A DNA stretch of 64,000 bases from an uncultured virus (IMG/VR IMGVR_UViG_3300037991_001521). Lineage: Duplodnaviria > Heunggongvirae > Uroviricota > Caudoviricetes > Autographiviridae. Location of the stretch: positions 1 to 64,000 of the IMG/VR virus record IMGVR_UViG_3300037991_001521. The stretch is one strand, 5' to 3'. The translations under genes were made by a program, and so were the position numbers. Every line of letters starts with the position of its first letter. Positions within the stretch are counted from its first letter, which is position 1. The notes under the pieces were generated by a model, which was not told where the DNA came from, made no database searches, and saw only the letters and a program-made list of their open reading frames with translations. This document shows positions 13,661-61,464 of this stretch, in pieces.

Positions 13661-14797
13661 TCAGAATGCGGCAGGCTTGGTAGCGGTGCCAGCAAACAGT
13701 TCCACTGCACAGGCAGGGTTCAGGTAGTCTGCGCCCATGGCGAGACGACCCAGGATCACGTCGCCTTGGTAGACCACGGAGACGTCACCGCTGGTGACCT
13801 GGACCTGAGGGCCAATAGCTTCAACGCAGCCAGCGGCTTCGCGTTGGAAGATAAGACCACAGGAGTTTGCGAATTCGGTTTCTTCACCGTACTCGTTGTT
13901 GATGCCAGTGACATCGTTAGCAGCATCTTCCACAGCTTCGCTGACAAAGGAGCCAGTGTTACCGGGGGAGGTGGTGCCAGGGTTGGTTGCAGAACCAGTT
14001 CCGTACTTGGTGCCATACTGGCTAAAGAACGGAATGTTCATGGACTTGAAGATCTTGATACCAGCAATCTCCACAATGCCCTGACCGGACTGCAGGGCAG
14101 CGCCTTGCTCGTCACGGTTGATCAGTCCGTTGTTGCCAACTTCCTGGATCAGTGCATAGTATTGACGTGGGTTCAGAACACCTACACGACCTTCTTGAGA
14201 CACACCCTTCTCATCCATCGCAGCAGCAGCGTCGAAGAAAGCGGTGGTCAGTTTCTGAGCATCGTATGCATCAGATGCGTTGGCAGTAGCACCAACACGG
14301 ATTTGGGTGCCACCCGGCTCAACGAAGTTAGACTTGGTGATAGGGGAAGCAGCACGTGCACCGCGAGTGATAGCGCGGAAGATCAGACGATCATACTTTT
14401 GTGCAAGTGCATAACCGATCTTACGTGAGATTTCAGAACGCAGATCGTAGTGGGCAAGAGTTTCATCCAGGTCATACAAAAATGCACTGGAGATGAGCAG
14501 ATCATCAACGGTGATGGTCTTCTCAGCCACCGGAGGTGCACCGTCGGAGTTACCGAGGATTGCGTTTCCGGGGGTGTGGTACTCAGCCGTGGTGCGACCA
14601 GTGTAGATGAACTGCATAGATTTGCCGTTCGTCAGCGTACGCTTCATGATCAGATCACGAGCGATAGCATTATACTGGAAGCCTTTGAACATTTCTCCAC
14701 TGAACAACTTCAGGTAGAGAGCGCGGGCGTCACCCGCAGAATTAGCCTGACCAGGACGAGTCAGACTCGTGGTCAGCGTAGAACTTTGATGTGCCAT
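13661..14797 (-). CDS. Major capsid protein (gp10), copy A
   Basis: ALYLKLFSGEMFKGF...EKTITVDDLLISSAF motif of T7-like cyanophage capsids. Confidence 0.96.
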   Translation of the reverse strand: MAHQSSTLTTSLTRPGQANSAGDARALYLKLFSGEMFKGFQYNAIARDLIMKRTLTNGKSMQFIYTGRTTAEYHTPGNAILGNSDGAPPVAEKTITVDDLLISSAFLYDLDETLAHYDLRSEISRKIGYALAQKYDRLIFRAITRGARAASPITKSNFVEPGGTQIRVGATANASDAYDAQKLTTAFFDAAAAMDEKGVSQEGRVGVLNPRQYYALIQEVGNNGLINRDEQGAALQSGQGIVEIAGIKIFKSMNIPFFSQYGTKYGTGSATNPGTTSPGNTGSFVSEAVEDAANDVTGINNEYGEETEFANSCGLIFQREAAGCVEAIGPQVQVTSGDVSVVYQGDVILGRLAMGADYLNPACAVELFAGTATKPAAF

Positions 14798-14827
14798 TGT
14801 AAGGAGTAAATAGTATTAACCAACTCC

Positions 14828-14945
14828 CAAAGCTTTGAGAAAAATTTTTTGTGGTCTATCCCACCGTCTAGACGGCTAATGGGTATCCGCGTACGGGCCA
14901 AAAGCCAATGCAAGGGAGGTCCGACTCTGAGGTGCCTCCCAAGCT
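14828..14945 (-). ncRNA. Conserved structured RNA/regulatory leader upstream of capsid (element 3), copy A
   Basis: Near-identical to 60048..60177; GGGAGG/CCTCCC hairpin, CCG-TACG-CGG hairpin, GGCT/AGCC to GGCG/CGCC covariation, palindromes. Confidence 0.7.
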
Positions 14946-14946
14946 T

Positions 14947-15099
14947 TTACAGAAGACCTTTAAGGCACTTCTTTTGTTTGCGACATTGTGGTTTCTTGTC
15001 ACCACAGTGACCACAACGATTGAAAGCTATACCGTTATCAACAGTATCAGGTACTGTTTTAGTGATAGCAGCTTTAACAACCTTAGATTGATGTGGCAT
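14947..15099 (-). CDS. Small Cys-rich protein (50 aa, CGHC...C...C), copy A
   Basis: MPHQSKVVKAAITK...FNRCGHCGDKKPQCRKQKKCLKGLL, conserved with synonymous changes at 60346..60498. Confidence 0.75.
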   Translation of the reverse strand: MPHQSKVVKAAITKTVPDTVDNGIAFNRCGHCGDKKPQCRKQKKCLKGLL

Positions 15100-15115
15100 G
15101 ATGTATCTAAATTTA

Positions 15116-15187
15116 TGTAGGCGTGGACGCTTTCCGATCATCCACTCCTTAAACCGTTCCTTCGGGCTTTACAATTGTGGAAAGCTC
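15116..15187 (-). ncRNA. Candidate pseudoknotted cis-regulatory RNA (element 2), copy A
   Basis: 72 nt with 3 differences from 60515..60586, two forming a compensatory A-U to G-C pair; 5' CUUUCC complementary to hairpin loop GGAAAG. Confidence 0.7.
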
Positions 15188-15196
15188 AGAAGATAT

Positions 15197-15313
15197 TTAG
15201 TTAGATGCGACATTGCGCTTAACAATGTAAGCAACACCACGATACTTCAAGACAATTTCTTTTTGCTTGGCTTGCTGTTCGCGGACACGTTGACGCAATT
15301 CAATTTGAGACAT
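15197..15313 (-). CDS. DUF4278-type downstream peptide (38 aa), copy A
   Basis: MSQIELRQRVREQQAKQKEIVLKYRGVAYIVKRNVASN; LxYRGVxY motif; directly 3' of the riboswitch; conserved at 60594..60707. Confidence 0.85.
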   Translation of the reverse strand: MSQIELRQRVREQQAKQKEIVLKYRGVAYIVKRNVASN

Positions 15314-15327
15314 GATGAACTTCAATA

Positions 15328-15378
15328 ACCTTACCCCCCGTTCCATGAGTAAGATGCCTGCGTCCCGAAGGATGAACG
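15328..15378 (-). promoter_or_regulatory. Glutamine-II (Downstream-peptide) riboswitch, copy A
   Basis: CGUUCA-UCC(UUCG)GGA-CGCA...stem with loop AUGGAACGGG pairing to 5' CGUUC; compensatory changes versus copy B; upstream of a YRGV peptide. Confidence 0.85.
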
Positions 15379-15390
15379 TACGGCTGAAGT

Positions 15391-15540
15391 CTATTTCTTT
15401 TTTGCAGTCTTGGCAGAACGCTTAAAGTTTGCTGCAGTTGGTGCGCCTTTTGATCCAGGCTTACGCATCTTCTCGCCACTGCCTGCAGCGATGCGCTTAC
15501 GTTTGGCGTGGATGTTAGCGTACAATCCTCGTTTAGCCAT
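15391..15540 (-). CDS. Small basic protein (49 aa, MAKRGLYANIHAKRKRI...)
   Basis: Conserved homolog at 61148..61297; start refined to ATG 15540. Confidence 0.8.
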   Translation of the reverse strand: MAKRGLYANIHAKRKRIAAGSGEKMRKPGSKGAPTAANFKRSAKTAKKK

Positions 15541-15748
15541 AAGTCTTTTTAGATTTCTTTTTAGCAAGAGGTAGTTGTGGACCAGTCCGCTTAAGAAAAG
15601 TTTCTTTCTCGTGCGGGTTGTTTGTGCTTTTACCTTTGTTGTAGATCTTTTGTTTCTTTTGTGCACCTCTGTGGCCTGGGCCAATGTCAAAGGACTGCGA
15701 AACAAAATTGCTGTTGAAGGCTTTTTGATCAACTCGTTTGCTGTTCAT
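15533..15748 (-). CDS. Small basic hypothetical protein (MNSKRVDQ...)
   Basis: TAATG coupling with the upstream gene; Lys-rich; copy A only. Confidence 0.6.
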   Translation of the reverse strand: MNSKRVDQKAFNSNFVSQSFDIGPGHRGAQKKQKIYNKGKSTNNPHEKETFLKRTGPQLPLAKKKSKKTYG

Positions 15749-16015
15749 TAGCATTTCCATTTGCGAAGTGCAAGAGCCTTCCGTGTAGGACGACCCTTGC
15801 TGTCTTTCATTGGTCCCTTCATGCCCTTGAACCGGGCGCAGAAAGAACGTTTACGAGGTCCGCCTTTTGGCTGAGGTGCCTTGAGATTCGACCCTGTAGC
15901 TCTGTTATATTTACGNNNNNNNNNNACCGGCAGCCGTCAAGCCACCAGACCGCGATTTGTGTACACCGATCTTAAGACTTACTGAACGTGTACTACTTTT
16001 TGTAGCCTTTGCCAC
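15748..16015 (-). CDS. Small basic phage protein (DUF6321-like), spans an N gap
   Basis: ...KSRSGGLTAAG-[gap]-RKYNRATGSNLKAPQPKGGPRKRSFCARFKGM...RKALALRKWKC. Confidence 0.65.
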
Positions 16016-27749: not shown

Positions 27750-30088
27750 TAACAGAAAAAGTAGGTGGAATTAATTACCGTTGACGGTTCTAAGTCACCG
27801 ATAATTGGAGGTTTTGTTTCTGCACCGATGTGTTGTGCAAATGTCGTGAGGTAGTCATGCTCCGCAAACAGGTGCATGTATGTTTCACGAACAATGGCTG
27901 AAAGAATACCCATGTCAGTAGCACGACATAGAACCGAGTCGTGTATGAGGGAAATCGGTGCGTCGAAACGGAGTGTAGATAGACACAAGAGACTTGCATC
28001 AAGTGAATGTATTAGATTAGGACTAGTAGCGTTTTTGTGATGTGCTTTGTCAACCTTGTCGGTGTCACCCGTAGCAATTTTGACTTGACATCTACCCAGT
28101 AATTGGAGATCAATTCGCTGAGTTTGGTATTTCATAAGACGTTGCGTCACAACAAAACCAGACGGTGTTACCCATTGGATTTGTGTTTCGCCACGATCAA
28201 TGGCAGCAGCTACTTCCTTTTCTATCCACTCCATCACTCGCATTGGACCAGGAAAAACCTTGTCCATGGCATTTCTTACAGCCTTTACTACAGCTGTCAA
28301 GTCTTCCTTTTCAACTTGAACACCTTTTTCTTTCAGGGCATCACGAATGTATGACCTATTGGAATAGGGTTTGGCGTTGTAAGGAATTGTCATAACTGTC
28401 CGCTTAGTTACCTTTCGATCCATAAAAGGCTGAATGCTTTCTGGAACGTCTGGTTTTGCTTGTTCAGCTATGGCTTTGTATGCGTCTTCTGGCTTGTTAC
28501 CAGGGACAACATTGACCAACTTTGCAGTTGATTTGTCTCGTGCAAGTCCTGCTAAGATTTGTAAACCTGAGCAAGTTGCATCTGTGGCAACCATCAAGTT
28601 TGTAAACTGACGGTTACATTTAATGACACAAGCGTAGTATTCCTCGCAGCTCGCGAGAAATTGCCAAGGTTCATCAGCAGCTTCCCATTCAGGAAGGTTG
28701 CCAATTGGATCTGTGGCTACACGTTTGATTAGATCGTGGTTGTTATCAACCCAGACCTGTCTGTCGTGCATTGTGTCCTTATCAAGACCATATGTTGTGG
28801 CAACCTGAAAGGCTAGCCAGCGTTCAGACTCTGGGGTGACAAAGGCTGACACATGGAATTTGAGAAGGGACTTTCCGAAGTCTGTGTCTTGTGGAGTCAA
28901 AAACGCAGGGATTGGGTAGACCCTAGATCTATAATCAAACGACCAAGGAATGAAAAATTTTTCTTTGTCCTTGAATACCTTGACAGCATTCATGGTCATC
29001 CGAGTCCTGCAAGACTTCTGGAATGCTTGTGCATTGAGGTTCATTACCTCTGCCGCACGTCGCCTGTAGTCCTTTCGTGCGTCGTAGTTCTCAGCAATGT
29101 CTGCAGGCTTTGGTGGCAGTGGTATGTCAACCACAGGGATAAACTTTCCAACAGCTCTACCCTTAGCCATGAGCGTCTCAGCAACGCCCACTACGAATGG
29201 GTTAAGAGTGTATGCAACCTTCTGAATTTTGTTCAGAAAGGCTATTGGAGTTTCCCCCTGTATACATGAGGGATTGCCCCGACGAACCATGTCATAACCC
29301 TTCATGACCTCATTTAAAATGTAGCCACCTTGAGTCTCATTAGACCAATCATTTGGTTCAATGAGCATGGGCCAAGCAATCGGACTAAATAGTTCAGCCG
29401 TTGCCATGACCTGGTCTTTAATGGCTATAAACTCAGGAGTAGGGACGACATAGTTTTGTCGTTTCTTACCCTCTTGCTTCATGTCTGTCATAAACCAATT
29501 GGAAGACAGACAAATGCAATCAAGCAACCAACCACCTAACCGAATGCGATTAGCACGGCCCCACGCCTGCCAGTGATCAACATCACATCGATTCATCAGT
29601 GTCCGAATGACAACTACCTTTTGCTCGGTGCCAATAGACTTGTGCCAGTAGTTCTGTTTAAGGCTGTGGAGTAACCCTGGCACGTTGGTCTCGTAGTACC
29701 TCATCATGCACTCGTTTTCAATGGCTTTACCGATGGCATCTGTGACGCCTGATACGGTGTTTGCTTTTGGTTTAGTGCTAAAGACTTTGTCGAACGTGAT
29801 TTTGCAAGCAATAGCTGCTGCAGCTTCAGGTTCTAAATCTTTGAGATACTCATGAATCTCTTTGAAGTTTTCACCAGCACGACCATTTGTTATGCGCAAC
29901 CGAGTTGCACTAATACGACCCACCACATGAGGGATAAGGTCCCTAATAGAAGCCACCCCGTAGACTGAAGAACTTGCATAACTTTTTTCCTCAAGGTTGC
30001 GTGTGTTTGAATGCAGATGATCAAGTCCTTGTCGGATTTGTTCTCTTTCAAGGGCAATCTGTTGGTCAATTTCAAATGGTGTCGGCAT
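27749..30088 (-). CDS. Single-subunit T7-like RNA polymerase (779 aa)
   Basis: DYRSRVY, DATCSGLQ, KRTVMTIPY, NLIHSLDAS, IHDS. Confidence 0.97.
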   Translation of the reverse strand: MPTPFEIDQQIALEREQIRQGLDHLHSNTRNLEEKSYASSSVYGVASIRDLIPHVVGRISATRLRITNGRAGENFKEIHEYLKDLEPEAAAAIACKITFDKVFSTKPKANTVSGVTDAIGKAIENECMMRYYETNVPGLLHSLKQNYWHKSIGTEQKVVVIRTLMNRCDVDHWQAWGRANRIRLGGWLLDCICLSSNWFMTDMKQEGKKRQNYVVPTPEFIAIKDQVMATAELFSPIAWPMLIEPNDWSNETQGGYILNEVMKGYDMVRRGNPSCIQGETPIAFLNKIQKVAYTLNPFVVGVAETLMAKGRAVGKFIPVVDIPLPPKPADIAENYDARKDYRRRAAEVMNLNAQAFQKSCRTRMTMNAVKVFKDKEKFFIPWSFDYRSRVYPIPAFLTPQDTDFGKSLLKFHVSAFVTPESERWLAFQVATTYGLDKDTMHDRQVWVDNNHDLIKRVATDPIGNLPEWEAADEPWQFLASCEEYYACVIKCNRQFTNLMVATDATCSGLQILAGLARDKSTAKLVNVVPGNKPEDAYKAIAEQAKPDVPESIQPFMDRKVTKRTVMTIPYNAKPYSNRSYIRDALKEKGVQVEKEDLTAVVKAVRNAMDKVFPGPMRVMEWIEKEVAAAIDRGETQIQWVTPSGFVVTQRLMKYQTQRIDLQLLGRCQVKIATGDTDKVDKAHHKNATSPNLIHSLDASLLCLSTLRFDAPISLIHDSVLCRATDMGILSAIVRETYMHLFAEHDYLTTFAQHIGAETKPPIIGDLEPSTVINSTYFFC
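29256..29276 (-). promoter_or_regulatory. Candidate phage RNAP promoter inside the RNAP gene
   Basis: CAATCCCTCATGTATACAGGG, exact 21-nt copy of 34423..34443. Confidence 0.5.
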
Positions 30089-34422: not shown

Positions 34423-34443
34423 CCCTGTATACATGAGGGATTG
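34423..34443 (-). promoter_or_regulatory. Candidate phage RNAP promoter after terL (phi-OR-like position)
   Basis: AATCCCTCATGTATACA|GGGAGA, same initiation hexamer as T7 TAATACGACTCACTATA|GGGAGA; exact 21-nt copy at 29256. Confidence 0.55.
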
Positions 34444-40442: not shown

Positions 40443-42834
40443 TTAACGAGCAAGCCCGCCATTGGCTTTGAACGGGTTTTCAGCAAATGCAGCATACATA
40501 TACTTTTCGCCATCTGTGTTATGACCAGGATTATTTGATTTAATCAGAAATCCATTAGAGAGAATATCTATAGGGCCATTGTTGTTTTCACCATTATTTT
40601 CATTTGCTTCTAGCTCAGGATTGTTTTGTGAATCGGTCGCATGGTTAAATCCAAGGCGCTTGTAATCGCGTATGAACCAGTCAGCGGCCGCTGTATTCTC
40701 ATTAATTGCCTTATACATTATCCATGCTGGCCTAAACCCCAACCAAATGAAGGGACCACGAGAATTATTATTGCCTTCATACGAACCAAACGCGCTATAG
40801 CCTTCGACAGAAGTAAAACAGTAAGCGATGTTGTTATTTAGGCTTGAACCTGTTAAACCGCGATTACCATCAAACACAGTTGAATTTACGGTGTCAATTC
40901 GATCTGTGTAAGCATCCTCACGGTCACGCTGGTCGAGCAATAAATTTTTTCCTGAAGTCAAATCTTTGTGGTAAACACGCCAACTATGTCCATTGTCTAG
41001 AGCCTTAGCCATGATAAATTCTGGCACCGCATTTAAGCCATGTCCAACACTCTGCTCGTTAGAGCTTGGATTCCATTTTACAATTGAAAAACCAGCATTT
41101 GTATTTGCTTTAACTGAAGAAGTTACGTCTCCGTCAGTGTTGCTGACCGGGTTTGAGGATCCGGCGTCCCAAGCCCAGCCAACAATCTTTACGCCTGAAC
41201 TGTTTAGACCTACGTTAGTCCCAACAGTAAAACCATTTGAGTTAAAGCTAGTAAGTATGGATGAATCTGTATCCTCTGCAGGATAGTCATTACTATGAAG
41301 AATTTTATCTTCTCCTCTGACCGAATCTATGAGGATATGGTCGCCTGCTTGGTTACGTCGCTTACCCCAGAGGAAATCTGGCTCAAATTCTAAGCCGGTA
41401 ATTGGTTGAGAACTACCAGTTCCGTTCCACAAAGCGGTGTCAAAGTAATCCGAACCATCGGCAATCGTCGGGTCGGGAAGGTTCGCGGTACAAATTGCTT
41501 TAAATCCAGAAGGTGCCGACGTGTTGAAGGGTCTTTGTCCAAAATTCAAGTCTGCTTCAATACTGTGCCTTCTAGACCACCTGCTTATAGCAGGGAAAAA
41601 AGTCCCAGAAAGTCCGCTTGCCAAGAATCCTGTTCCCGCCGCAGGATTGCCACTGTTAATATACGTTCCATTTACAGAAAATACCATTTCCAACAGACCC
41701 AATGTGATAAACACCGCCCATTGGCGTGTCAACAACACCAACCACCATTGATTCAGTAGATGTTTCCCTGACAGTTTCTACGGCTTCAAAGTACCACTTG
41801 CCGCTAGTTAGCCCCATCGTGCCAACAAAAGTAATGTAGTTAGTTCCTTGAAGATTGCCAAGCCAACTTTCTGCGGTATTAGGGTATTTAACGTGCAAGT
41901 TCCCATTACTTGTGATTGCATTTGTTTGATCTACAATCAATGGATTCATAACGCAGTAATTGCCGCTGACTTCTCCGCCCGCACCAGTGTCTGACTGCGT
42001 TCCGTTTACTGGTACGTCGAACAGAATATCATTGCCTGCACCTGCAGTCGAGCTGATGTTGTTTGCTGTCCAATCGTCTCCATTGCTGCTTGAGTCGTGA
42101 CCGACCGTAGACTCGTTGGCAAAATCAAAAAGATGGTATCCGTTTGATCCATATGTTCCGTCATAGGCTATAGCCTGCCAAACTCCATTGTCGTCAAACT
42201 CACCGAAATCTGTTTCGTCCTTTTGCGCACCGTCAATGAAATAAAAATCGGTCAAATAGCCATCAAAATAAAATCTCTTGGTTCCACTGTTGTCTTTAGC
42301 CAAGCCGATCCAATGATCAGCATTACTTTCACCAACGTAGCGGTAATCAAAATTTTGGACAACGTGGTTGGATGAACTTAAGTCAGAGGTATTAACTTGT
42401 TCTCCGTTTACATAAATAATTAACCTATCGTTTTCAGTAGACTGAGTTGTGTCAAACGCCAAGACAATGTGATACCACGCCGCAGGGTCTCTAAATACAC
42501 GATGAGTTATGACTTTTTTAGAGGTACTACTGTTGGCGTATGTTTCTACATAAAGTCTGTCGTTGTTATCAAAACGAATATCCAAACCTTTTGCGGAGTC
42601 GGGACTAGGTCCTGCAAAAAATATCGCCTTATCCACGTTACTAGCCCCCCTACCAGGCTGTTTTCGTTTTACCCAAAAGGAAAAGGTGAATTTTCTTTGG
42701 CTGCCTTCATTTGGATTGCTTCTTGTTAAGTGAGCACTGTCACCAGGATTAAACCGAACAGACTGGATCGGCCCAGCAGCGCCACCGGCTTGACCGGCGG
42801 CACCACCAAGCATATTATTATGAAAAATACTCAT
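40443..42834 (-). pseudogene. LamG/SPRY-type tail fibre or receptor-binding protein split by a frameshift (ORFs 41656..42834 and 40443..41741)
   Basis: LamG (FRDPAAWYHIV) and SPRY start (GKWYFE) in ORF1; SPRY end (NFGQRPF..APSGFKA) and the C-terminal domain in ORF2; mid-SPRY segment appears missing. Confidence 0.7.
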
Positions 42835-45800
42835 GAGTATGCAAGGGTAGCTACAGCGTGAATAGAGGTGGAAGAGCGGACGATGTAGTCGATCCGATCA
42901 ACGCCATTTGCGGTAGTCGTGAGCGTGGGTGCGGCTCCGCCAGCAAAGTCCCAATAAGAACCAAATGCAGCTGTACGGGAGCCAGTTCCATCTTGAACAA
43001 TGAAGATAGAACCGGATTGACCAGCGGTTAGGTTGCTGGGATTAGCAATGGTTGTGTTAGTTCCGAGCGTGACTGTGAAGTTACAGGAATTGGCAAAGTT
43101 AGGAGTAATGGTTGAAGCGCTGGAAAGCGTATCGATTTCAGCGACAGCACCTCCCTGAGCAGTAATAACGCCTTGAATGTTTGCAACACCATCAACATCC
43201 AAGCTGTCGCATTGGACCTCGCCTGTTACGTCAATGCCGTCTGATTTGGTGTTAAGTTTTTCGCTTCCATAATTGTAAAGACGAACCTTTCCATCACTGC
43301 CGTCGCAAAGAATATAAGTGGTAACAGTGCCGGAACCGTTATCAGTTTGCAAATATATGTCTGAATTATCTGCATTATTTCTAATAATAAGGTTGTTTGT
43401 GTTATTATGAATGTTGGAATTCGTTCCATCGTGCCAAATCTGCAGGTCATCACCATTGCCCAGTCTCAACCTGTCGTTGTCATGCAGATCGACGTTGCCG
43501 TTAAATATGGCACTGCCATCCGCCCTGATTGCTGAAGTAACAGTTGTTCCATACCAACCTTCCCATACATTTGAATTACTTGGATCTGCCGTACTGCTCG
43601 GTCTTGCAGCACGAACACCTCCAAAGCTTTCAAGCGATGCACCGGTGCCATCAACGCCTCGGGCAGTGCCTGTTTGTACGTCGCCAGAAAACGTCCCCGC
43701 GCCTGTTACGTCAATGCCGTCTGATTTGGTGTTAAGTTTTCTACTTCCATAGTAATAAAGATCAACCTCACCTGTGCTCCCATCACACTTTACGTAAGTA
43801 GTAAGGCCACCAGAACCATTGTCTGACTCAAGATCAATATCTTGGTCATTAGATGTATTTCTAATAATTAGCCTGTTAGCACTATCCTGACTTATAAAGC
43901 TTAAGTTGCCATCGTGATAAATCTGCAGGTTACCATCAGTGCCAAATTTTGCCCTGGCATCGTCTTGAATTATTAAAGAACTATCGCTTTTATCCCATTT
44001 AAAGTTACCTACATCTCCTGTAAAAAGAACGTCTCCATCGCTGTAAAGAATAGTCGCACCGCTGGCAATGGTTACGTTGCCAGAAAATGAGGGGCTGGTG
44101 TCTGTGCTCGCCGCAGTCAGGCGACCATCAGCATCAACAGTAAACGACGGCACACCACTTTGGCTTGCGCCATAGGTTCCGGCAGAAACAGAAGTGCTAG
44201 CAAGCTGTGTAGCGCCAATAGAACCGGCAGTAACAGCAACAGTAATCTGTCCGTTACCAGGAGTGTTGTCGCTAACAGTGATACCAGTACCACCAACAAC
44301 ATCGCTAGTTAGGGCTGTGTCGATCTTGGAATCGATCGTGCCATCAACGTACGTTTTGTTGGTTGCATTATCACCAGAAGTCGGAGTAATGGTGTTAAGC
44401 TGACCCGTCATGGTTGCACCAGACGTGGTGACAAAACCAGTGGTGTCAGTTACACCAGTAACCCAGGCACTAGAAGACGCATCGTAAATTTTGAGCGTGT
44501 CAGCAGTTGTGTCAAACCACAGGTCACCGTCATCCAAGGACGTGGTAGGTGCGGTTGCACTAACGCGATAACGAGCAGCAAAACTATTGACGCTGCTCAT
44601 ATTGGTAGCAACGGTGTTTACGTTACTAATAGAACCTGCAACAGTGTTGACATTGCTAATAGAGCCTGAAACAGTATTGATGTTACTGATGTCGTCTGAG
44701 CAGTTGCTCATTGCCGTGACATTACTGGACGTAGCCAGTGTGTTCATGTCAGACACAACATCGGCAGTACCAAGTGTATTTAGGTCTGCAACAACGTCGG
44801 CTGTTCCAAGAGTATTCATATCGGCAACAGCATCAGCAGTACCAAGGCGACCAATTTCAGTAGCCCTCCCTGCAACTGCAGTTACATCAGAACTGATTCC
44901 CGCAACTGTCGTTACGTCAGAACTGATTCCTGCAACAGTTGTGACATCAGAACTAACACCAGCAACCGTAGTTACGTTGCTAGAAATACCAGCAACAGTA
45001 GTAACTTCAGTAGCTTTAGGAGTCAGGCGATGGAATGTGTAGGTATGCAGCGTAGAGGTAGTTTCTACGATTGCACCAAATCCAGCAGACAGAACAGTAG
45101 TACCACAGCCAGTAATCGTAACGGTGTTAGAGCCAGACCCATTAGCAATGGTGACAGTACCGCTAGACGGAGTACGGCTAGTACCAATCTCCTTAATACT
45201 GATCAGAGTGCCAGCACCATCGTTGACATCAGGGTTAGAAGTCGGGAAACTGGTTTCACTTGCAATTGGTACGAAACCACCAACATCATCTACTAGGTCA
45301 ATAACACGTGCATCAATAGCTGCAGTGGTTGCAATACGAGCATCATTACTGCTCCAAGTGTCACCACTTTCAATAGTTTCAGAACTGTCTTGGCGGAAAT
45401 AACGTGCATCAGATGCAGAGGTTGTGAAGAAACTAGTATCGTTAGTAGTTGCAGCACTATGCTCACTGTTAGTGACAACAGTAGCACCACTCATTTTGGT
45501 TGTGTCAACCGCTCCGCTAGCAAGTTTAGCGTTAGTTACTGAACTATCACCAATGTTAGATGTACCACCTGTAAAATTATCAACATAATTTTTGGTTGCA
45601 GCATCTTGTGCACCAGTAGGATCACTGACACTTGTGATGCGGCTAGACTCAACGTCTACAGTACCCGTACCATGGGGGCTAATAACAACGTTTTCGTTAT
45701 TAGAATCACTGACAATCTTCTTACCGTTGACATCCAGGTTTTCCAGCAGTGTTTGTACAGACAAAGCACCTGCAGGAATGTTAACAAAACCAGTTTGCTG

Positions 45801-47867
45801 GTCAACAGTGAATGTTTCACCAACTTTAAAGGTACCTTGATGATCAGTAATAGCAGCCCAGACCTTACCGTTGTTAAGCTCTTTGATCTGCTTAGTGTCA
45901 TCAGGCACACCGCCGTTCTCAGGCAATGCAGAATAATCAGTACCACTACCCACGTACTCCATCGTATGACCGCTAGAAGCAATCATCGAACGCAGGAAGA
46001 ACGACACAGAAGCACCGCTACTTACAGCACCATTAAGACCGAGGTTTTGTGTACGGTCGCTGGTGTCAGGACGGCTAATAGTTACAGTCCATCCGCTGCC
46101 TGCAGCAACTGCTGAAAGCACAGGATACGTGTTACCGCCAATGTCCACAAGCATGTTGTCTTGCGGGCGAGTTGCAGAACCATGCCAACCAGAGGCAGCT
46201 GTAGGAGCGTCAATAGTAAATGTAGTAGAACCATCAGCAGCAGAGGCTGTGGTGCTTGCAGTAAAGATTGCACTGGTAGACCGACCATCAGCAATTAGCG
46301 AAAACTCACCAAAGTCAGAAGTTGATGCAGCCAAGTTAGCTTGACCACCATTTAAGCAAGCAATATGAAAATGGTTAAAGAAAGCATAGCTACTTGTACA
46401 CTGTGCATAACCATTGTTGGTCACAAAAATGCCAGGTGCATCTAGACCAGTGTGGGTATAGCTATCAGCAACAATAGACCGGAGAGGTGAGTCGTCGTGA
46501 GGCGTAGAGCCATCAACTAGCAGACCACCGCCAGTAGGAGCAGAGTCCAAATCACCGGCACGTCCCTTGTCTTCTGTACCAGCATAGAATGCCAGGTTGC
46601 TGTTATCAATCTCAGAATCAGAGAAGTTAGTACAGTTCTGGATGTACGGAGACTTGTAGATCATCGCGTCGGGATAGAACGAAACGTTCCAGCCCTGAGT
46701 TGGCGGAAGACCATAAGTAGAATCTTCCCACAAGGATCCAGTGTCACCGCGGGTACCACTAGCTTTCATACCCGTAAACGTCATGTTATGCAGGTATGTG
46801 CCGCTGTTTACACGGAACAAGCTATTGGTTTCAGTAGCAGCAGTCGGGTGTACGATAACGTTACGGATAGAAGCACCAATGATTGCAACATCACGCTTTT
46901 CAATGTCAATAGGTGCAGCTTCCTGATAAATACCAGGTGCAACCAAGACAACACTACCATCACCATACGTTGAATCATCGTTAATTGCTTCTACAGCACC
47001 TTTAATACTGGCTTTTGGTGTAGAAATACGGTGACCATCGTTGGTATCGTCACCATTGATACTATCAACATAGATAACTTTTTCAAGTTTGGTAAACGTA
47101 CCACCAGAGGTAATGCCTTCCCAGCTTGACCCGTTCCATACATGGAAGGTTTTGTCGCTATCATTTTGATACCAGAACTTACCGGTTTGATAAGTAGAAC
47201 CAGCCGGTGTACCAGTTTGAATTAGTGTATCGTGACGAGTCTTGGCTGCAAGAGCAGTAAAGATATTGGTATCTGCAGGAGCAGGAGACTGTGCATCTTG
47301 CTCTGCATTGTTAATAATGTCACTATTTTTCAACCGGTCAAGGTCAATAGTGTTTTGTGCTAGACCTAGCGTAATAGTGCCGTCACCATCATCTGTAACA
47401 GTAACACCGGTACCATCAGTACCGATATCGTTAGTGATTGCGGTGTCAATAGTGGCAGAGACACGGTTGTCAATTGCTTCTGTAGTAGCAATCTGTGTGT
47501 CAACACTTGACCACGTCTCTCCACTTTTAATAGTTTCAGTGTCAAAGTCCCACGTAGATTCTCGTAGTTCTTCAACAGCAAAGTTGTTTTGAGTAAAGTT
47601 ATCGTTTAGATCTTCTGCTTTAATAGCAGAACCTGCAAAGAACGTAGCCTTAAGATTAGATACATCCGTCTCACGATAAATACGGATTTTTGCATTGTTT
47701 GCAGGTGCAGTAGTGAAGCTAAGGGTGGTAGCGTTGGCAAATGTAAATGCAGTTGTGGCAGTACCGTCAATGGTGACTTTGACTTCTGCTTCTTTGATGT
47801 ATTCAAATGTAAAAGAATAGTTCGTGGTTGAACCATTCCCTGTGTATTCAATAAAAGTGTTAGCCAT
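42831..47867 (-). CDS. Long tail fibre (gp17-like, 1678 aa), copy B
   Basis: T7 fibre N-terminal domain, beta-helix-like region (IYVDSINGDD...APGIYQE), DAATKNYVD motifs, VTTVAG repeats. Confidence 0.92.
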   Translation of the reverse strand: MANTFIEYTGNGSTTNYSFTFEYIKEAEVKVTIDGTATTAFTFANATTLSFTTAPANNAKIRIYRETDVSNLKATFFAGSAIKAEDLNDNFTQNNFAVEELRESTWDFDTETIKSGETWSSVDTQIATTEAIDNRVSATIDTAITNDIGTDGTGVTVTDDGDGTITLGLAQNTIDLDRLKNSDIINNAEQDAQSPAPADTNIFTALAAKTRHDTLIQTGTPAGSTYQTGKFWYQNDSDKTFHVWNGSSWEGITSGGTFTKLEKVIYVDSINGDDTNDGHRISTPKASIKGAVEAINDDSTYGDGSVVLVAPGIYQEAAPIDIEKRDVAIIGASIRNVIVHPTAATETNSLFRVNSGTYLHNMTFTGMKASGTRGDTGSLWEDSTYGLPPTQGWNVSFYPDAMIYKSPYIQNCTNFSDSEIDNSNLAFYAGTEDKGRAGDLDSAPTGGGLLVDGSTPHDDSPLRSIVADSYTHTGLDAPGIFVTNNGYAQCTSSYAFFNHFHIACLNGGQANLAASTSDFGEFSLIADGRSTSAIFTASTTASAADGSTTFTIDAPTAASGWHGSATRPQDNMLVDIGGNTYPVLSAVAAGSGWTVTISRPDTSDRTQNLGLNGAVSSGASVSFFLRSMIASSGHTMEYVGSGTDYSALPENGGVPDDTKQIKELNNGKVWAAITDHQGTFKVGETFTVDQQTGFVNIPAGALSVQTLLENLDVNGKKIVSDSNNENVVISPHGTGTVDVESSRITSVSDPTGAQDAATKNYVDNFTGGTSNIGDSSVTNAKLASGAVDTTKMSGATVVTNSEHSAATTNDTSFFTTSASDARYFRQDSSETIESGDTWSSNDARIATTAAIDARVIDLVDDVGGFVPIASETSFPTSNPDVNDGAGTLISIKEIGTSRTPSSGTVTIANGSGSNTVTITGCGTTVLSAGFGAIVETTSTLHTYTFHRLTPKATEVTTVAGISSNVTTVAGVSSDVTTVAGISSDVTTVAGISSDVTAVAGRATEIGRLGTADAVADMNTLGTADVVADLNTLGTADVVSDMNTLATSSNVTAMSNCSDDISNINTVSGSISNVNTVAGSISNVNTVATNMSSVNSFAARYRVSATAPTTSLDDGDLWFDTTADTLKIYDASSSAWVTGVTDTTGFVTTSGATMTGQLNTITPTSGDNATNKTYVDGTIDSKIDTALTSDVVGGTGITVSDNTPGNGQITVAVTAGSIGATQLASTSVSAGTYGASQSGVPSFTVDADGRLTAASTDTSPSFSGNVTIASGATILYSDGDVLFTGDVGNFKWDKSDSSLIIQDDARAKFGTDGNLQIYHDGNLSFISQDSANRLIIRNTSNDQDIDLESDNGSGGLTTYVKCDGSTGEVDLYYYGSRKLNTKSDGIDVTGAGTFSGDVQTGTARGVDGTGASLESFGGVRAARPSSTADPSNSNVWEGWYGTTVTSAIRADGSAIFNGNVDLHDNDRLRLGNGDDLQIWHDGTNSNIHNNTNNLIIRNNADNSDIYLQTDNGSGTVTTYILCDGSDGKVRLYNYGSEKLNTKSDGIDVTGEVQCDSLDVDGVANIQGVITAQGGAVAEIDTLSSASTITPNFANSCNFTVTLGTNTTIANPSNLTAGQSGSIFIVQDGTGSRTAAFGSYWDFAGGAAPTLTTTANGVDRIDYIVRSSTSIHAVATLAYS
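43220..43740. repeat. 41-nt exact direct repeat (43220..43260 and 43700..43740) in tail fibre B
   Basis: cgcctgttacgtcaatgccgtctgatttggtgttaagtttt twice, 480 nt apart (KLNTKSDGIDVTG). Confidence 0.95.
44590..45010 (-). repeat. Tandem 10-12 aa repeats in tail fibre B
   Basis: VTTVAGISSD-like x5, ADxNTLGTADVV-like x3, SISNVNTVAG-like x3. Confidence 0.9.
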
Positions 47868-58869: not shown

Positions 58870-60015
58870 TCAGAATGCAGCGTTACCAGTAGAACCGACG
58901 GCTGCACCAGCAATCAGTTCAACACAGCAAGCAGGGTTCAGATAGTCAGCGCCCATGGCGAGACGACCCAGAAGCACGTCACCTTGGTAGACCACGGAGA
59001 CGTCACCGCTGGTGACCTGAACTTGAGGACCGATGGCTTCAACACAACCAGCACCTTCGCGCTGGAAGATCAAACCACAGGAGTTAGCGAATTCGGTTTC
59101 TTCACCGTACTCGTTGTTGATGCCAGTGACATCGTTAGCAGCATCCTCAACACTTTCACCGACAAAGGAGCCAGTGTTACCAGGAGAGGTAGTGCCAGGG
59201 TTGGTAGCAGAACCAGTACCATACTTGGTACCGTAGTTGCTGAAGAACGGAATGTTCATGGACTTGAAGATCTTGATACCAGCAATCTCCACAATGCCCT
59301 GACCAGACTGCAGAGCGGCACCCTGCTCGTCACGGTTGATCAGTCCGTTGTTGCCAACTTCCTGGATCAAGGCATAGTATTGTCGTGGGTTGAGGACCCC
59401 GACTCTGCCCTCGCTGCTGACCCCTTTTTCATCCATCGCAGCAGCGGCGTCGAAGAAAGCGGTGGTCAGCTTTTGAGCATCGTAAGCATCAGAAGCGTTA
59501 GCAGTAGCGCCAACACGAATCTGGGTGCCGCCGGGCTCAACAAAGCTAGACTTGGTAATCGGAGATGCAGCACGTGCACCACGGGTGATAGCACGGAAGA
59601 TCAGACGATCATATTTCTGGGCAAGAGCATAGCCAATCTTACGGCTGATCTCAGAGCGCAGATCGTAGTGAGACAGAGTCTCGTCAAGATCATACACGAA
59701 AGCCGAGCTGATGAGCAGGTCGTCAACCGTGATGGTCTTTTCAGCCACCGGGGGCGCACCGTCGGAGTTACCGAGGATAGCGTTTCCGGGGGTGTGGAAT
59801 TCAGCAGTAGTGCGACCCGTGTAGATGAACTGCATAGATTTGCCGTTCTTCAGGGTACGCTTCATGACCAGGTCACGAGCGATAGCATTATACTGGAATC
59901 CTTTGAACATCTCTCCAGAGAAGAGCTTCAAATAAAGAGCGCGGGCGTCTCCCGCGGAGTTAGATTGACCAGCCCTAGTTAGGGAAGTGGTCAGATCAGA
60001 AGACTGATGTGCCAT
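58870..60015 (-). CDS. Major capsid protein (gp10), copy B
   Basis: Highly similar to 13661..14797. Confidence 0.96.
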   Translation of the reverse strand: MAHQSSDLTTSLTRAGQSNSAGDARALYLKLFSGEMFKGFQYNAIARDLVMKRTLKNGKSMQFIYTGRTTAEFHTPGNAILGNSDGAPPVAEKTITVDDLLISSAFVYDLDETLSHYDLRSEISRKIGYALAQKYDRLIFRAITRGARAASPITKSSFVEPGGTQIRVGATANASDAYDAQKLTTAFFDAAAAMDEKGVSSEGRVGVLNPRQYYALIQEVGNNGLINRDEQGAALQSGQGIVEIAGIKIFKSMNIPFFSNYGTKYGTGSATNPGTTSPGNTGSFVGESVEDAANDVTGINNEYGEETEFANSCGLIFQREGAGCVEAIGPQVQVTSGDVSVVYQGDVLLGRLAMGADYLNPACCVELIAGAAVGSTGNAAF

Positions 60016-60047
60016 TTGTTAGGTACGAAATAAGTGTATAAGCAGTC

Positions 60048-60177
60048 TCCAAACGTTTGGAAAGGCAATGTGCCAAAATTTTTTGTGGTCTATCCCACCG
60101 TCATGACGGCGAAGGGTATCCGCGTACGGGCCAACGCCAATGCAAGGGAGGTCCGACTCTGAGGTGCCTCCCAAGCT
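60048..60177 (-). ncRNA. Capsid-leader structured element 3, copy B
   Basis: See copy A; has an extra small GGCA-CAT-TGCC hairpin insertion. Confidence 0.7.
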
Positions 60178-60185
60178 GTTAAGAT

Positions 60186-60344
60186 TTAGTAGCCACGCAT
60201 TTTTTTACGGGCTTCATTGATTGCGTTTTTCCTGCGTTGCAGCTTTGCAGCAGGTGAAACATTCTTTGGATTTTCTAGATGCTTTTTAACTTTGGTTTTG
60301 GCTTTACGCCCAACACCATCAAGAAAAGATTTGACAAGATCCAT
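60186..60344 (-). CDS. Small basic protein (52 aa, MDLVKSFLDG...), copy B only
   Basis: ATG 1 nt after the upstream stop; insertion relative to copy A. Confidence 0.6.
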   Translation of the reverse strand: MDLVKSFLDGVGRKAKTKVKKHLENPKNVSPAAKLQRRKNAINEARKKMRGY

Positions 60345-60345
60345 A

Positions 60346-60498
60346 TCAGAGGAGCCCTTTAAGACACTTTTTTTGTTTGCGACATTGTGGCTTTTTGTTA
60401 CCACAGTGACCACAGCGATTGAAAACAATACTGTTATCTACAGACACAGGGTCCATCTTTGTAACAGCAGCTTTGACAACTTTAGATTGATGTGGCAT
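60346..60498 (-). CDS. Small Cys-rich protein, copy B
   Basis: Homolog of 14947..15099. Confidence 0.75.
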   Translation of the reverse strand: MPHQSKVVKAAVTKMDPVSVDNSIVFNRCGHCGNKKPQCRKQKKCLKGLL

Positions 60499-60514: not shown

Positions 60515-60586
60515 TGTAGGCGTGGGCGCTTTCCGAACACCCACTCCTTAAACCGTTCCTTCGGGCTTTACAATTGTGGAAAGCTC
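60515..60586 (-). ncRNA. Candidate pseudoknotted RNA element 2, copy B
   Basis: See copy A. Confidence 0.7.
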
Positions 60587-60593
60587 TTTGTAT

Positions 60594-60707
60594 TCAGTTT
60601 TTAATTGTGCGCTTGACAATGTAAGCAACGCCCCGATACTTTAAGACAATCTCTTTTTGCTTGGCTTGCTGTTCACGGATGCGCTGACGTACTTCAACTT
60701 GAGACAT
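60594..60707 (-). CDS. DUF4278-type downstream peptide (37 aa), copy B
   Basis: MSQVEVRQRIREQQAKQKEIVLKYRGVAYIVKRTIKN. Confidence 0.85.
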   Translation of the reverse strand: MSQVEVRQRIREQQAKQKEIVLKYRGVAYIVKRTIKN

Positions 60708-60722
60708 GATTAGTTCAGAAAT

Positions 60723-60777
60723 AACCTACCCCCCGTTCCATGAGTAGGTTGCCTGCGTCCCGATAACGGGATGAACG
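60723..60777 (-). promoter_or_regulatory. Glutamine-II (Downstream-peptide) riboswitch, copy B
   Basis: CGUUCA-UCCCG(UUAU)CGGGA-CGCAGGC-AACCUACUC-AUGGAACGGG-GGGUAGGUU. Confidence 0.85.
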
Positions 60778-60793
60778 TACGGCCTGAGTCTAA

Positions 60794-61138
60794 TTAAAAA
60801 TCGTAAGTGAAGCCAACTTTTGTGCCATAGTTGTTGTCACTGTCAGCAGTCATAAACGACACTTCGCCATATGCAGACACGCTGTCTGAAAGGCTGACAG
60901 AACCTCCGACTTTGCCAGAGAATTCAAGTTCAGTGTCACCACCGTCAGGAGCGACGATGGCAGGACCTGCTTGGACGAACCAGTTGTCCTTTTTGTAACC
61001 GACATGGTTGTCAATTACAGTGCCGCCATAGTTTGATCCAGAGAAACCAGAGTTGGCTTCCACGTTCAAATAGGGCTGGGCAGAGACTGGAGCTGCAACA
61101 GCAATGAGTGCTGCGGGGAGGAAAGCAGTGAGTTTCAT
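60794..61138 (-). CDS. Small outer-membrane beta-barrel-like protein with signal peptide, copy B only
   Basis: Signal peptide, alternating beta-strands, C-terminal KVGFTYDF (beta-signal ending in Phe). Confidence 0.75.
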   Translation of the reverse strand: MKLTAFLPAALIAVAAPVSAQPYLNVEANSGFSGSNYGGTVIDNHVGYKKDNWFVQAGPAIVAPDGGDTELEFSGKVGGSVSLSDSVSAYGEVSFMTADSDNNYGTKVGFTYDF

Positions 61139-61147
61139 GTCAGTGTG

Positions 61148-61297
61148 TTAGCGTTTTTTGGCGGTTTTGGCAGCACGCTTGAAGTTGGCGGCAGTCGGTG
61201 CTCCTTTGGAACCCGGCTTCCTCATCTTCTCGTTACTGCCTGCGGCGATACGACGCCGCTTAGCATGGATGTTAGCGTAGAGTCCAGGTTTTGCCAT
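61148..61297 (-). CDS. Small basic protein (MAKPGLYANIHAKRRRI...)
   Basis: Homolog of 15391..15540. Confidence 0.8.
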   Translation of the reverse strand: MAKPGLYANIHAKRRRIAAGSNEKMRKPGSKGAPTAANFKRAAKTAKKR

Positions 61298-61464
61298 CAC
61301 TTCATCCTCCGTTTACGCAATGCTGCAAAATCAGCACCGTCAATTTTCATTTTGTTACCAGCCATCCCAGCAATCTTCTGTTGCTTAGACGACAATTTTT
61401 TGTTTTTGTTTTTATTTTTAGGCCGACCCACTTTGGAGCCGTATGTTCCAGGTCCGTAAGGCAT
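61297..61464 (-). CDS. Small basic protein (MPYGPGTYGSKVGRP...)
   Basis: Homolog of 16055..16228. Confidence 0.8.
   Translation of the reverse strand: MPYGPGTYGSKVGRPKNKNKNKKLSSKQQKIAGMAGNKMKIDGADFAALRKRRMK

Follow-up and report, generated by a model that had tools for sequence, protein, structure and literature searches.

T7-like cyanophages pass from middle to late gene expression during infection, and in P-SSP7 the boundary falls sharply at the capsid gene. We asked what the DNA ahead of that gene holds in an uncultured virus of the Autographiviridae, using positions 1 to 64,000 of IMG/VR record IMGVR_UViG_3300037991_001521 (here called the window). Three conserved noncoding blocks, elements 1, 2 and 3 in gene order, lie there together with small open reading frames (ORFs). 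Judged by its pattern of sequence change, element 3, the block nearest the capsid gene, is a well-supported structured RNA that is apparently undescribed. The window holds the interval twice, as copies A and B, which are two related phage genomes in one record rather than a duplication, and they therefore offer a natural comparison. All features below are on the minus strand unless stated otherwise.

Element 3 is a predicted leader RNA of the capsid gene

Element 3 in copy A comprises a hairpin, P0 (14910 to 14946), a core (14848 to 14915) and a distal leader (14798 to 14847) that runs up to the major capsid protein gene (13661 to 14797, 378 amino acids [aa]). In copy B, P0 and the core occupy 60082 to 60180, the distal leader 60016 to 60081, and the capsid gene 58870 to 60015 (381 aa). 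Both capsid genes come from the ORF list, and that of copy A shares 96.8% identity with the one annotated as major capsid protein in AP013539.1. P0 was placed by covariation, the core by covariation (P1, P2 and P4) and a covariance model, and the distal leader by palindrome statistics and folding in copy A and by a palindrome scan in copy B.

By blastn, element 3 was found upstream of the capsid gene in 83 of 83 sources, that is, 82 loci and the window. Cultured phages of several genera carry it too by blastn: P-SSP7, P-SSP2, P-SSP3, P-SSP6, P-SSP10, 9515-10a, NATL2A-133, NATL1A-7, S-B28, S-RIP2, KBS-P-1A, S-CBP1 and S-SBP1. The covariance model of the core, R1, matched 40 of 44 sources. It occurred once per genome copy in the window (84.5 bits in copy A; 86.2 bits in copy B, at 60082 to 60147) and once in the whole P-SSP7 genome (67.5 bits). 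R1 had no match in the whole Syn5 genome or in the capsid regions of SS120-1, P-SCSP1q and pelagiphage HTVC168P. Thus, element 3 belongs to one clade of cyanopodoviruses. P-SSP7, S-CBP1 and S-SBP1 are labelled as members of the MPP-B group in the part of the literature consulted (PMC7885011).

The structural evidence is comparative. RNAalifold predicted 23 base pairs from 51 distinct element 3 sequences, 18 of them with compensatory changes. We tested a hand-drawn structure of P0, P1, P2 and P4 on 51 sequences and found that 88.6% of the cells could pair, compared with 73.3% in shuffles, and that both sides had changed at 19 of the 23 pairs. The covariation score was 0.438 versus 0.171; 0 of 500 shuffles reached it, and slid partners gave at most 0.141. 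Cells with G.U outnumbered those with A.C by 48 to 26, which favours the gene strand as the folded one. An initial annotation of the window had called the differences between copies A and B mostly compensatory, and the changes in stems are indeed mostly paired: in P1 a U-A pair becomes G-C and a 1-nt deletion is two-sided, in the element 2 hairpin A-U becomes G-C, and in a palindrome CTAG becomes CATG. It had also described the noncoding blocks as better conserved than the peptides between them. This holds for element 2 (66/69 nt identical, 95.7%) and for P0 to P4 of element 3 (93/101, 92.1%) against the ORFs of the two peptides, the YRGV ORF (81.2%) and the Cys-rich ORF (82.4%); the capsid ORF and the riboswitch of element 1 stand at 84.7% and 84.2%.

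P0 of copy A consists of GGGAGG, a 15-nt loop (CACCUCAGAGUCGGA) and CCUCCC, with an outer GC..GC extension. Double changes occur at all eight P0 pairs. The hairpin begins 1 to 10 nt past the stop of the upstream ORF (1 nt past the Cys-rich ORF in copy A), and 1 to 3 nt and an invariant UUGG lead from it into the core. There, P1 encloses the P2 hairpin and a conserved GAUACC bulge. P2 is a stem of 3 to 4 bp with a UACG cap, in versions such as CCG/CGG, CGG/CCG, CCU/AGG and CUUC/GAAG, among others. A 12-nt perfect palindrome, CCGUCUAGACGG, lies in the core at 14864 to 14875 and 60098 to 60109; variants have a CAUG or AUAU centre, and S-CBP1 has CCGUGACGG. The P4 hairpin, GUGG-GAUAGA-CCAC, keeps its pairing as GUGG/CCAC, GCUG/CAGC or GUGUG/CACAC. 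A block of about 27 nt in element 3 is nearly invariant.

The distal leader runs in the order A/U run, second perfect palindrome, purine block, pyrimidine block, AUG. In copy A, the second palindrome is CAAAGCUUUG (14828 to 14837), and GGGAGU (14823 to 14828) is complementary to ACUCCU (14802 to 14807), just before the AUG; in copy B, the palindrome is UCCAAACGUUUGGA (60048 to 60061). An even perfect palindrome of at least 10 nt was present in 69 of 73 distinct leaders, with a mean length of 12.7 versus 6.7 in shuffles, and its sequence varies widely between phages. Palindrome centres in the relatives include ACGT, AGCT, GATC, GTAC and others, and many form 6-bp restriction-type sites.

Several other accounts of element 3 were tried and set aside. 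A pseudoknot between GUCUA and the P4 loop appeared in single-sequence folds, but the CAUG and AUAU variants lose it. An ORF reading through the element was rejected because its frames are not kept among relatives. As a repeated operator, CCGTCWWGACGG was exact only at the two element 3 sites and had nine matches at up to two mismatches, with 4.3 expected. A host origin was rejected after an exact 18-mer search of 596 billion bases of prokaryote genomes: 29 of the 36 matches were chance matches in unrelated sequence, and the other seven lay on phage-like contigs of marine or lake metagenome-assembled and single-amplified genomes.

In Rfam 15, searched with E-values up to 10 and permissive filters, element 3 met only small nucleolar and long noncoding RNA noise, and nothing was found at its site in 16 related loci either. 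Neither it nor element 2 reached the threshold of any Rfam 15 family, in keeping with the initial annotation, which had been unable to assign them to known classes. A literature search found no description of the element 3 leader. The nearest likeness is in a 2023 catalogue of 10,006 viral structured RNAs, where the entries consulted include five candidates without a family name that lie ahead of capsid genes of the PHA00201 type (PMC10690425): DNAVirus_3706, 3823, 3864, 5397 and 231. DNAVirus_3706 is 43 nt long with 74 sequences, 71 marine and 3 freshwater, and DNAVirus_3823 is 80 nt long with 9 oceanic sequences. Like element 3, these candidates were predicted from IMG/VR and lie directly upstream of T7-type capsid genes. 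They were compared with element 3 by description only, and the entries consulted give no function, tRNA link or P-SSP7 context (PMC10690425). Part of element 3 or the distal hairpin may be among them, uninterpreted.

A tRNA or a tRNA-like fold adjoins the core in relatives

In some relatives a real tRNA adjoins the core. ARAGORN found one in 2 of 31 loci (L002 and L160; L numbers are our labels for the loci compared), and Rfam found one in L181 (tRNA, 36.4 bits). The tRNA standing in the place of P0 is tRNA-Gly in NATL1A-7 and tRNA-Leu in L160. Other lineages have a fold like a tRNA T-arm, which combines a closing helix and a short variable arm with a stem of 5 to 6 bp and its 7-nt loop, U(U/G)C(A/G)ANN. 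The closing helix ends 1 to 3 nt before the UUGG and occurs in at least eight complementary versions among 25 sequences: AAGUGA/UCACUU, GAGUA/UACUC, GAUG/CAUC, CUAAG/CUUAG, ACUGA/UCAGU, GGCA/UGCC, GGUAAG/CUUACC and AAGUAG/CUGCUU. The P0 stem GGGAGG/CCUCCC is identical to the T-stem of several of these lineages, and P0 thus looks like a derived T-arm. Element 3 as such is not a tRNA: ARAGORN made no call on it in the window, and the tRNA-Gly of NATL1A-7 lies just upstream rather than on the element.

This 5' module stands close behind a gene in both types. Of 48 distinct P0-type sequences, 40 have an ORF of at least 15 codons that ends 37 to 50 nt upstream of the core, and in a 41st the distance is 100 nt. 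Among T-arm-type sequences, the upstream ORF ends 36 to 88 nt before the core in 17 of 20. The stop codon of the riboswitch-controlled ORF falls within the tRNA-like fold in P-SSP7 and several lineages, and in other lineages psbA, not the YRGVAY peptide of element 1, adjoins the fold.

The capsid gene is probably reached by read-through

The expression clusters of P-SSP7 are early (genes 1 to 12), middle (13 to 28) and late (29 to 51), as given in the text consulted (PMC7885011, citing Lindell 2007). The capsid gene is gene 29. Between it and gene 28 are 306 nt that contain the riboswitch, a 17-codon ORF, the tRNA-like fold and element 3. Read against these clusters, element 3 sits exactly at the middle/late boundary.

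We looked for promoters as internal repeats, using a k-mer script to find two-copy motifs. The top internal repeat in Syn5 is a 15-mer with one copy within the polymerase gene and another directly behind the terminase gene (L198, positions 4929 and 44797), which we take to be the published Syn5 RNA polymerase promoter. In P-SSP7 (L199), a two-copy motif of 20 to 21 nt lies at 6853 and 43820, in the same two gene contexts. The window has one at 29256 to 29276 and 34423 to 34443 (minus strand), at ORFs that Pfam confirmed as RNA polymerase and terminase, and the motif ends in GTATACAGGG in both the window and P-SSP7. These motifs are probable promoters for the phage RNA polymerase of this clade, which thereby gains candidate sites.

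Nothing like the two-copy motif was found upstream of the capsid gene, and the Syn5 15-mer is absent from the window. A literature search likewise found no promoter described upstream of the capsid gene in T7-like cyanophages. Element 3 does not behave as a multi-copy promoter, as each genome copy in the window has a single match to its core 18-mer even when three mismatches are allowed, and the likeness of ATTGG..CCCGTAC to the Syn5 promoter is not above chance. Intrinsic terminators were predicted at 0 sites in 14600 to 15800, with 1.4 expected. Since promoter-like repeats occur only in the RNA polymerase gene and after the terminase gene, the capsid gene is probably reached by read-through. 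On the simplest reading, capsid transcripts would start about 14.5 kb upstream, and the middle/late distinction would be made on RNA.

Element 3 may be a processing mark and protective leader

We propose that the interval carries three separable sense-strand RNA modules within a long read-through transcript and that element 3 serves as a processing mark joined to a protective leader, a reading to which we give a probability of about 0.45. Host enzymes of tRNA processing, whether RNase P, RNase Z or RNase E, would cut at the tRNA-like part, which would serve as punctuation, and the cut would free the capsid and late mRNA from the RNA of the middle genes upstream. The folded core would become the new 5' end, shield the message and aid the heavy translation of capsid protein, so that the middle/late boundary would be set after transcription. 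One would expect a processing mark to look like a tRNA or tRNA mimic placed right at the junction, and a stabilising leader to look like a compact fold at the 5' end that the cut creates.

Processing at tRNA-type structures is familiar from mitochondrial tRNA punctuation, MALAT1-mascRNA, RNase P cuts in bacterial polycistronic mRNAs and the CI RNA of phage P4. Element 3 resembles tRNA punctuation in that a tRNA or T-arm fold lies exactly between two expression units and adjoins the downstream RNA. It differs in that the downstream partner is a conserved three-hairpin core, the version in the window has no T-loop, and cleavage is postulated from the arrangement of the parts. A single-copy covarying RNA, fused to a tRNA or tRNA mimic exactly at the middle/late boundary, offers a concrete and mutable target for asking whether these phages, which include some of the most abundant viruses in the ocean, control their most abundant protein after transcription.

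Several observations weigh against this reading. Single-sequence folding energies are unremarkable (z = -1.45 and -1.03 for the two copies; -2.07 for the opposite strand), so the case for RNA structure rests on covariation. The most conserved stretch, CCGUCUAGACGGUGGGAUAGACCAC, hardly varies, which puts pairing there largely beyond the covariation test. P0 of the window keeps the stem, but its 15-nt loop is not recognisably tRNA-like. Neither ARAGORN nor Rfam found a tRNA in the window, and Rfam found none in 12 of 13 loci scanned, L181 being the exception. The promoter label of the two-copy motifs rests on analogy with Syn5. Four metatranscriptome runs contained related sequence as contigs only, which are uninformative on transcript ends, strand and level; the joints in these contigs are those of relatives without the Cys-rich ORF. 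The symmetry of the palindromes and a likeness to T7, both taken up below, also count against it.

The main rival is control of the late genes chiefly at the DNA level, in which element 3 would act as a promoter, read by the phage or the host RNA polymerase, and would carry operator palindromes for a dimeric regulator. We consider this unlikely. The candidate regulator is the phage MarR-like gp0.7 homologue, which is annotated in P-SSP7; the late operon would start at the capsid gene, precisely where the P-SSP7 late cluster begins, and the transcript start would fall at or after GAUAGACC. The near-invariant block of about 27 nt would suit such a site. So would the palindromes: the CCGUCUAGACGGUGGGAUAGACCAC stretch and the distal hairpin, and likewise CCGTCTAGACGG and the second palindrome found in 69 of 73 distinct leaders, are symmetric through their centres, which an RNA hairpin does not require and which hints at a site in DNA.

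The likeness to T7 concerns the gene 10 promoter phi10. GGGAUAGACCACAA resembles the phi10 transcript start GGGAGACCACAA and lies at a similar distance from the start codon, which suits a promoter. More exactly, GGGATAGACCACAA (14849 to 14862) matches the first 12 phi10 bases (T7, L203, 131 to 142) except for a 2-nt insertion, and the G of GACCAC is 59 nt before the ATG compared with 63 nt from +1 in T7. In both phages the capsid gene follows the scaffold gene, the leader measures about 60 nt, and GGGA..GACCACAA stands near the start of the leader. However, phi10 is a mapped promoter of a multi-copy family, whereas the element 3 block lies within covarying helices, has no second copy of its core 18-mer in the same genome copy and differs from the phage's own two-copy promoter-like motif, which is unrelated and located elsewhere. 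Further evidence argues for RNA: pairing in P1, P2 and P4 is kept through double changes and two-sided insertions, the G.U pairs in stems fit the sense strand only, and the palindromes differ widely among phages with arms that co-vary, which points to pairing and not to a fixed protein site. Finally, a tRNA gene adjoining the core implies that transcription enters from upstream.

A binding site in the mRNA, that is, a translational operator or riboswitch in the core that sets capsid translation, is distinctly unlikely. The binder could be the capsid protein, the scaffold protein, the basic Cys-rich protein encoded upstream or a small ligand. The conserved unpaired GAUACC, GAUAGA loop and UUGG in a covarying scaffold are typical of binding pockets, and the element always stands ahead of one gene. 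A gene for the basic peptide with four cysteines ends 1 to 10 nt upstream in 32 of 48 distinct P0-type sequences, with the tails CLKGLL (23), CLKDLL (6), CLKALL (2) and CLKELL (1). However, 45 to 90 nt of variable sequence separate the core from the start codon, and the Cys-rich peptide is absent in 25 of the 55 relatives that carry element 3 and were compared with enough upstream flank.

The Cys-rich ORF encodes a basic peptide of 50 aa in both copies (14947 to 15099 in copy A, MPHQSK...FNRCGHCGDKKPQCRKQKKCLKGLL; 60346 to 60498 in copy B, from the ORF list). It belongs to a conserved family of small proteins of 48 to 61 aa whose indels are whole codons and whose N-terminal half is variable, with an invariant ...F(K/N)RCGxCGxKKxxCRKQKKCLKxLL. 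The peptide has no Pfam or PHROG match, and Atlas returns hypothetical proteins only. Copy B has after it an extra basic ORF of 52 aa (MDLVKSFLDG..., 60186 to 60344), which has no counterpart in copy A and only weak, sub-threshold Pfam matches. The initial annotation had given the order riboswitch, YRGV peptide, element 2, Cys-rich peptide, element 3, capsid for both copies. On the minus strand this order is borne out, except that in copy B the 52-codon ORF lies between the Cys-rich ORF and element 3.

The modules are separable

The same annotation had treated the three blocks as one cassette, each block placed before its own gene. The census among relatives shows that they are not one obligate cassette. 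We compared 80 IMG/VR relatives, of which 55 had at least 700 nt of upstream flank. The riboswitch was present in 59 of the 80 and 48 of the 55, the Cys-rich ORF in 36 and 30, and element 2 in 10 and 7, whereas element 3 was present in all sources. Seven relatives have element 3 without any other module. psbA, which had been expected in this interval in many relatives, was found in 46 of the 80 loci and also in P-SSP7, S-CBP1 and NATL1A-7.

Element 1 is a type-2 glutamine riboswitch

Judged by its sequence, element 1 is a type-2 glutamine riboswitch, known biology in a phage setting, as had been supposed from the start. It matches the Rfam Glutamine-II model (RF01704, gathering cutoff 33 bits) over the full model, positions 1 to 60, with 47.0 bits in copy A (15329 to 15381) and 59.5 bits in copy B (60724 to 60780). 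In both copies an ORF from the ORF list starts 15 to 16 nt after the aptamer; it encodes an IF17-like peptide (...KYRGVAYIVKR...) of 38 aa in copy A (15197 to 15313, MSQIELRQ...KYRGVAYIVKRNVASN) and 37 aa in copy B (60594 to 60707). This peptide reaches Pfam DUF4278 below threshold (18.3 versus 25.3 bits, E = 0.003) and PHROG phrog_5049 with E = 2e-4. The pair of riboswitch and YRGVAY peptide also occurs in P-SSP7, where it lies ahead of the capsid region, and in S-CBP1 and NATL1A-7. In P-SSP7, the riboswitch (48.1 bits) is followed by the unannotated 17-codon ORF, MKVTFVYRGVAYTRVIG. The S-CBP1 aptamer (L152, 1740 to 1823; 45.7 bits) is 84 nt long, compared with a 60-position model, and has extra internal sequence. 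A profile built from seven aptamers was used for the riboswitch census, and in the relatives compared the cassette usually lies immediately upstream of the capsid leader.

Accounts of this riboswitch, as far as consulted, state that the type-2 aptamer of marine picocyanobacteria precedes ORFs for DUF4278 IF17-like proteins, that glutamine binding raises protein synthesis through translation of the riboswitch's own ORF, and that IF17 is an inhibitor of glutamine synthetase (PMC6212724). The phage riboswitch would then turn on translation of its own IF17-like peptide, as a host-derived cassette of a known kind. It shares with the Glutamine-II/Downstream-peptide motif and IF17-like ORF (RF01704; Weinberg 2010, PMC2864571; Klaehn 2018, PMC6212724) the full-model match and the short ORF with a YRG motif behind it. 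It differs in being phage-borne and just upstream of the late operon, and its peptide is 37 to 38 aa in the window (17 aa in P-SSP7) and scores under the Pfam cutoff.

Could the riboswitch reach the capsid gene as well? One version of this idea is improbable: the riboswitch and the capsid leader could be mechanically coupled as a translation-gated switch of RNA processing, so that virion output follows the nitrogen status of the host. Ribosomes admitted at high glutamine would unfold the punctuation signal and change the processing, stability or translation of the late mRNA. The geometry would allow it, as in phages of the P-SSP7 type the stop codon of the YRGVAY ORF falls in the first hairpin of the tRNA-like fold or in its closing helix, and in the window the last small ORF of copy A stops 1 nt ahead of P0.

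The broader claim of the initial annotation, that the riboswitch governs the output of the capsid operon as a single nitrogen-sensing cassette, is a minority reading of similarly low probability. Riboswitch and element 3 do occur together in 48 of the 55 relatives, no terminator is predicted between them, and in P-SSP7 and several lineages the controlled ORF ends within the tRNA-like fold, as noted. However, the other seven relatives carry element 3 without a riboswitch, psbA rather than the peptide adjoins the tRNA-like fold in some, in the window two further modules stand between the riboswitch and element 3, and this riboswitch class controls translation of its own ORF in the account consulted (PMC6212724).

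Element 2 is a minor, optional block

Element 2 is 69 nt long in copy A (15117 to 15185, with hairpin S3 at 15120 to 15148) and lies at 60516 to 60584 in copy B, as placed by alignment to copy A. Its sequence and distribution mark it as a minor, narrowly distributed conserved module in which one pseudoknot-capable hairpin is supported. Comparison of copy B with L010 shows a clean presence/absence insert of about 70 nt after the YRGVAY ORF. What surrounds it varies: in the window type the Cys-rich ORF comes after it; in four loci (L005, L021, L070 and L072) an acidic ORF beginning MSHQS precedes it and element 3 follows directly; and in L068 it lies directly between the YRGVAY ORF and element 3 with no other gene. 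Thus, element 2 is not the leader of any particular gene. The MSHQS ORF and the end of the YRGVAY ORF overlap in different frames (L005, 203 to 349; L021, 3126 to 3275; L072, 256 to 408). In the window, only its first codons are left, ahead of element 2 at 15190 to 15210 (ATGTCGCAT), and it shares the N-terminus MxHQS with the Cys-rich peptide.

A scan of IMG/VR with 16-mers, together with the capsid loci, gave 23 distinct versions of element 2. A looser pattern gave 13 matches in metagenome contigs, none of them element 2. The expectation of covariation across many genomes, amply realized in element 3, is realized in element 2 for S3 only; the other two of the three predicted helices never covary. 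Pair 50-64 of S3 is A-U in 12 sequences, C-G in 5, G-C in 5 and G.U in 1, pair 48-66 is G-C or A-U, and pair 51-63 is U.G or U-A, so that there are double changes at two pairs in addition to the U.G/U-A pair. The wobble pairs fit the gene strand only. Predicted folds are more stable on the gene strand than on the opposite strand in the window (-19.9 versus -16.7 and -24.6 versus -19.4 kcal/mol), unlike in L005, where the gene-strand fold is not the more stable one. The S3 loop GGAAAGC is complementary to the 5'-end GCUUUCC, and both segments are invariant across variants. A Shine-Dalgarno sequence with a start codon inside element 2 was rejected: the codon is AUG, GUG or CUG, changing along with the bases it pairs with, and no reading frame is preserved.

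On the plus strand, element 2 resembles PhotoRC-I (RF01716), the 5' untranslated region (UTR) motif of cyanobacterial psbA, with 26.1 and 25.2 bits, under the gathering cutoff of 45 bits. The two share a two-hairpin layout and the linker CUCCUUAAACCGU..CCUUCGGG. They differ in that the first loop of element 2 is 13 nt instead of 6, no psbA follows, and the wobble pairs favour the other strand. True PhotoRC-I gave four matches above the cutoff in host genomes, all sense and upstream of psbA, whereas the element 2 match lies opposite to the gene strand and the window has no psbA. Since genuine PhotoRC-I precedes host psbA in sense, element 2 RNA would be complementary to such leaders. An antisense promoter for element 2 was rejected, because plus-strand sites (3 versus 1.5 in shuffles) are not above chance and G+C-rich P0 sequence stands there in relatives.

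These data allow a reading in which the element 2 transcript acts in trans on the host psbA leader in phages without their own psbA. Besides the PhotoRC-I likeness and the gene-strand wobble pairs, it has in its favour that none of the 10 IMG/VR loci with element 2 showed psbA, as against 46 of the 70 others, an exclusion pattern that is suggestive only, and that the energies of duplexes with four host leaders beat most shuffles, 2 to 63 of 300 being equally good. It is the least probable of the readings considered here, as the PhotoRC-I scores are far under the cutoff, the duplex test depends on the same likeness and is weak for one host (63/300), and the psbA anticorrelation may mirror a single clade and includes several loci with short upstream flanks.

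The record and neighbouring genes

The full virus record has 65,974 bases with runs of N, and the window, which is part of it, has three 10-N runs, at 15916, 22012 and 30765. It contains two collinear T7-like podovirus genomes that are 72 to 86% identical, about 1.4 genome lengths in all, joined head to tail. The record thus looks like a mis-joined or binned scaffold rather than one genome. All genes are on the minus strand, in the order portal, scaffold, small ORFs, the interval, capsid and tail tube genes. Copy A shares 96% DNA identity with AP013539.1, an uncultured Mediterranean phage of the genus Pedosvirus whose small ORFs are annotated as hypothetical.

Upstream of the riboswitch, both copies encode a conserved basic peptide of 50 aa, MAKRGLYANIHAKRKRIAAGS... 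(15391 to 15540 and 61148 to 61300), which matches phrog_16028 (E = 4e-30 and 6e-30) and follows psbA in S-CBP1. Copy B alone has a 114-aa protein with a signal peptide (60794 to 61138) that adjoins the riboswitch upstream and matches Pfam Phage_OMP, a cyanophage outer-membrane beta-barrel domain, with E = 1e-36. Elsewhere in the window, a 1,678-aa ORF (42831 to 47867) contains an exact direct repeat of 41 nt at 43220 to 43260 and 43700 to 43740, which extends to 72 nt at 87.5% identity.

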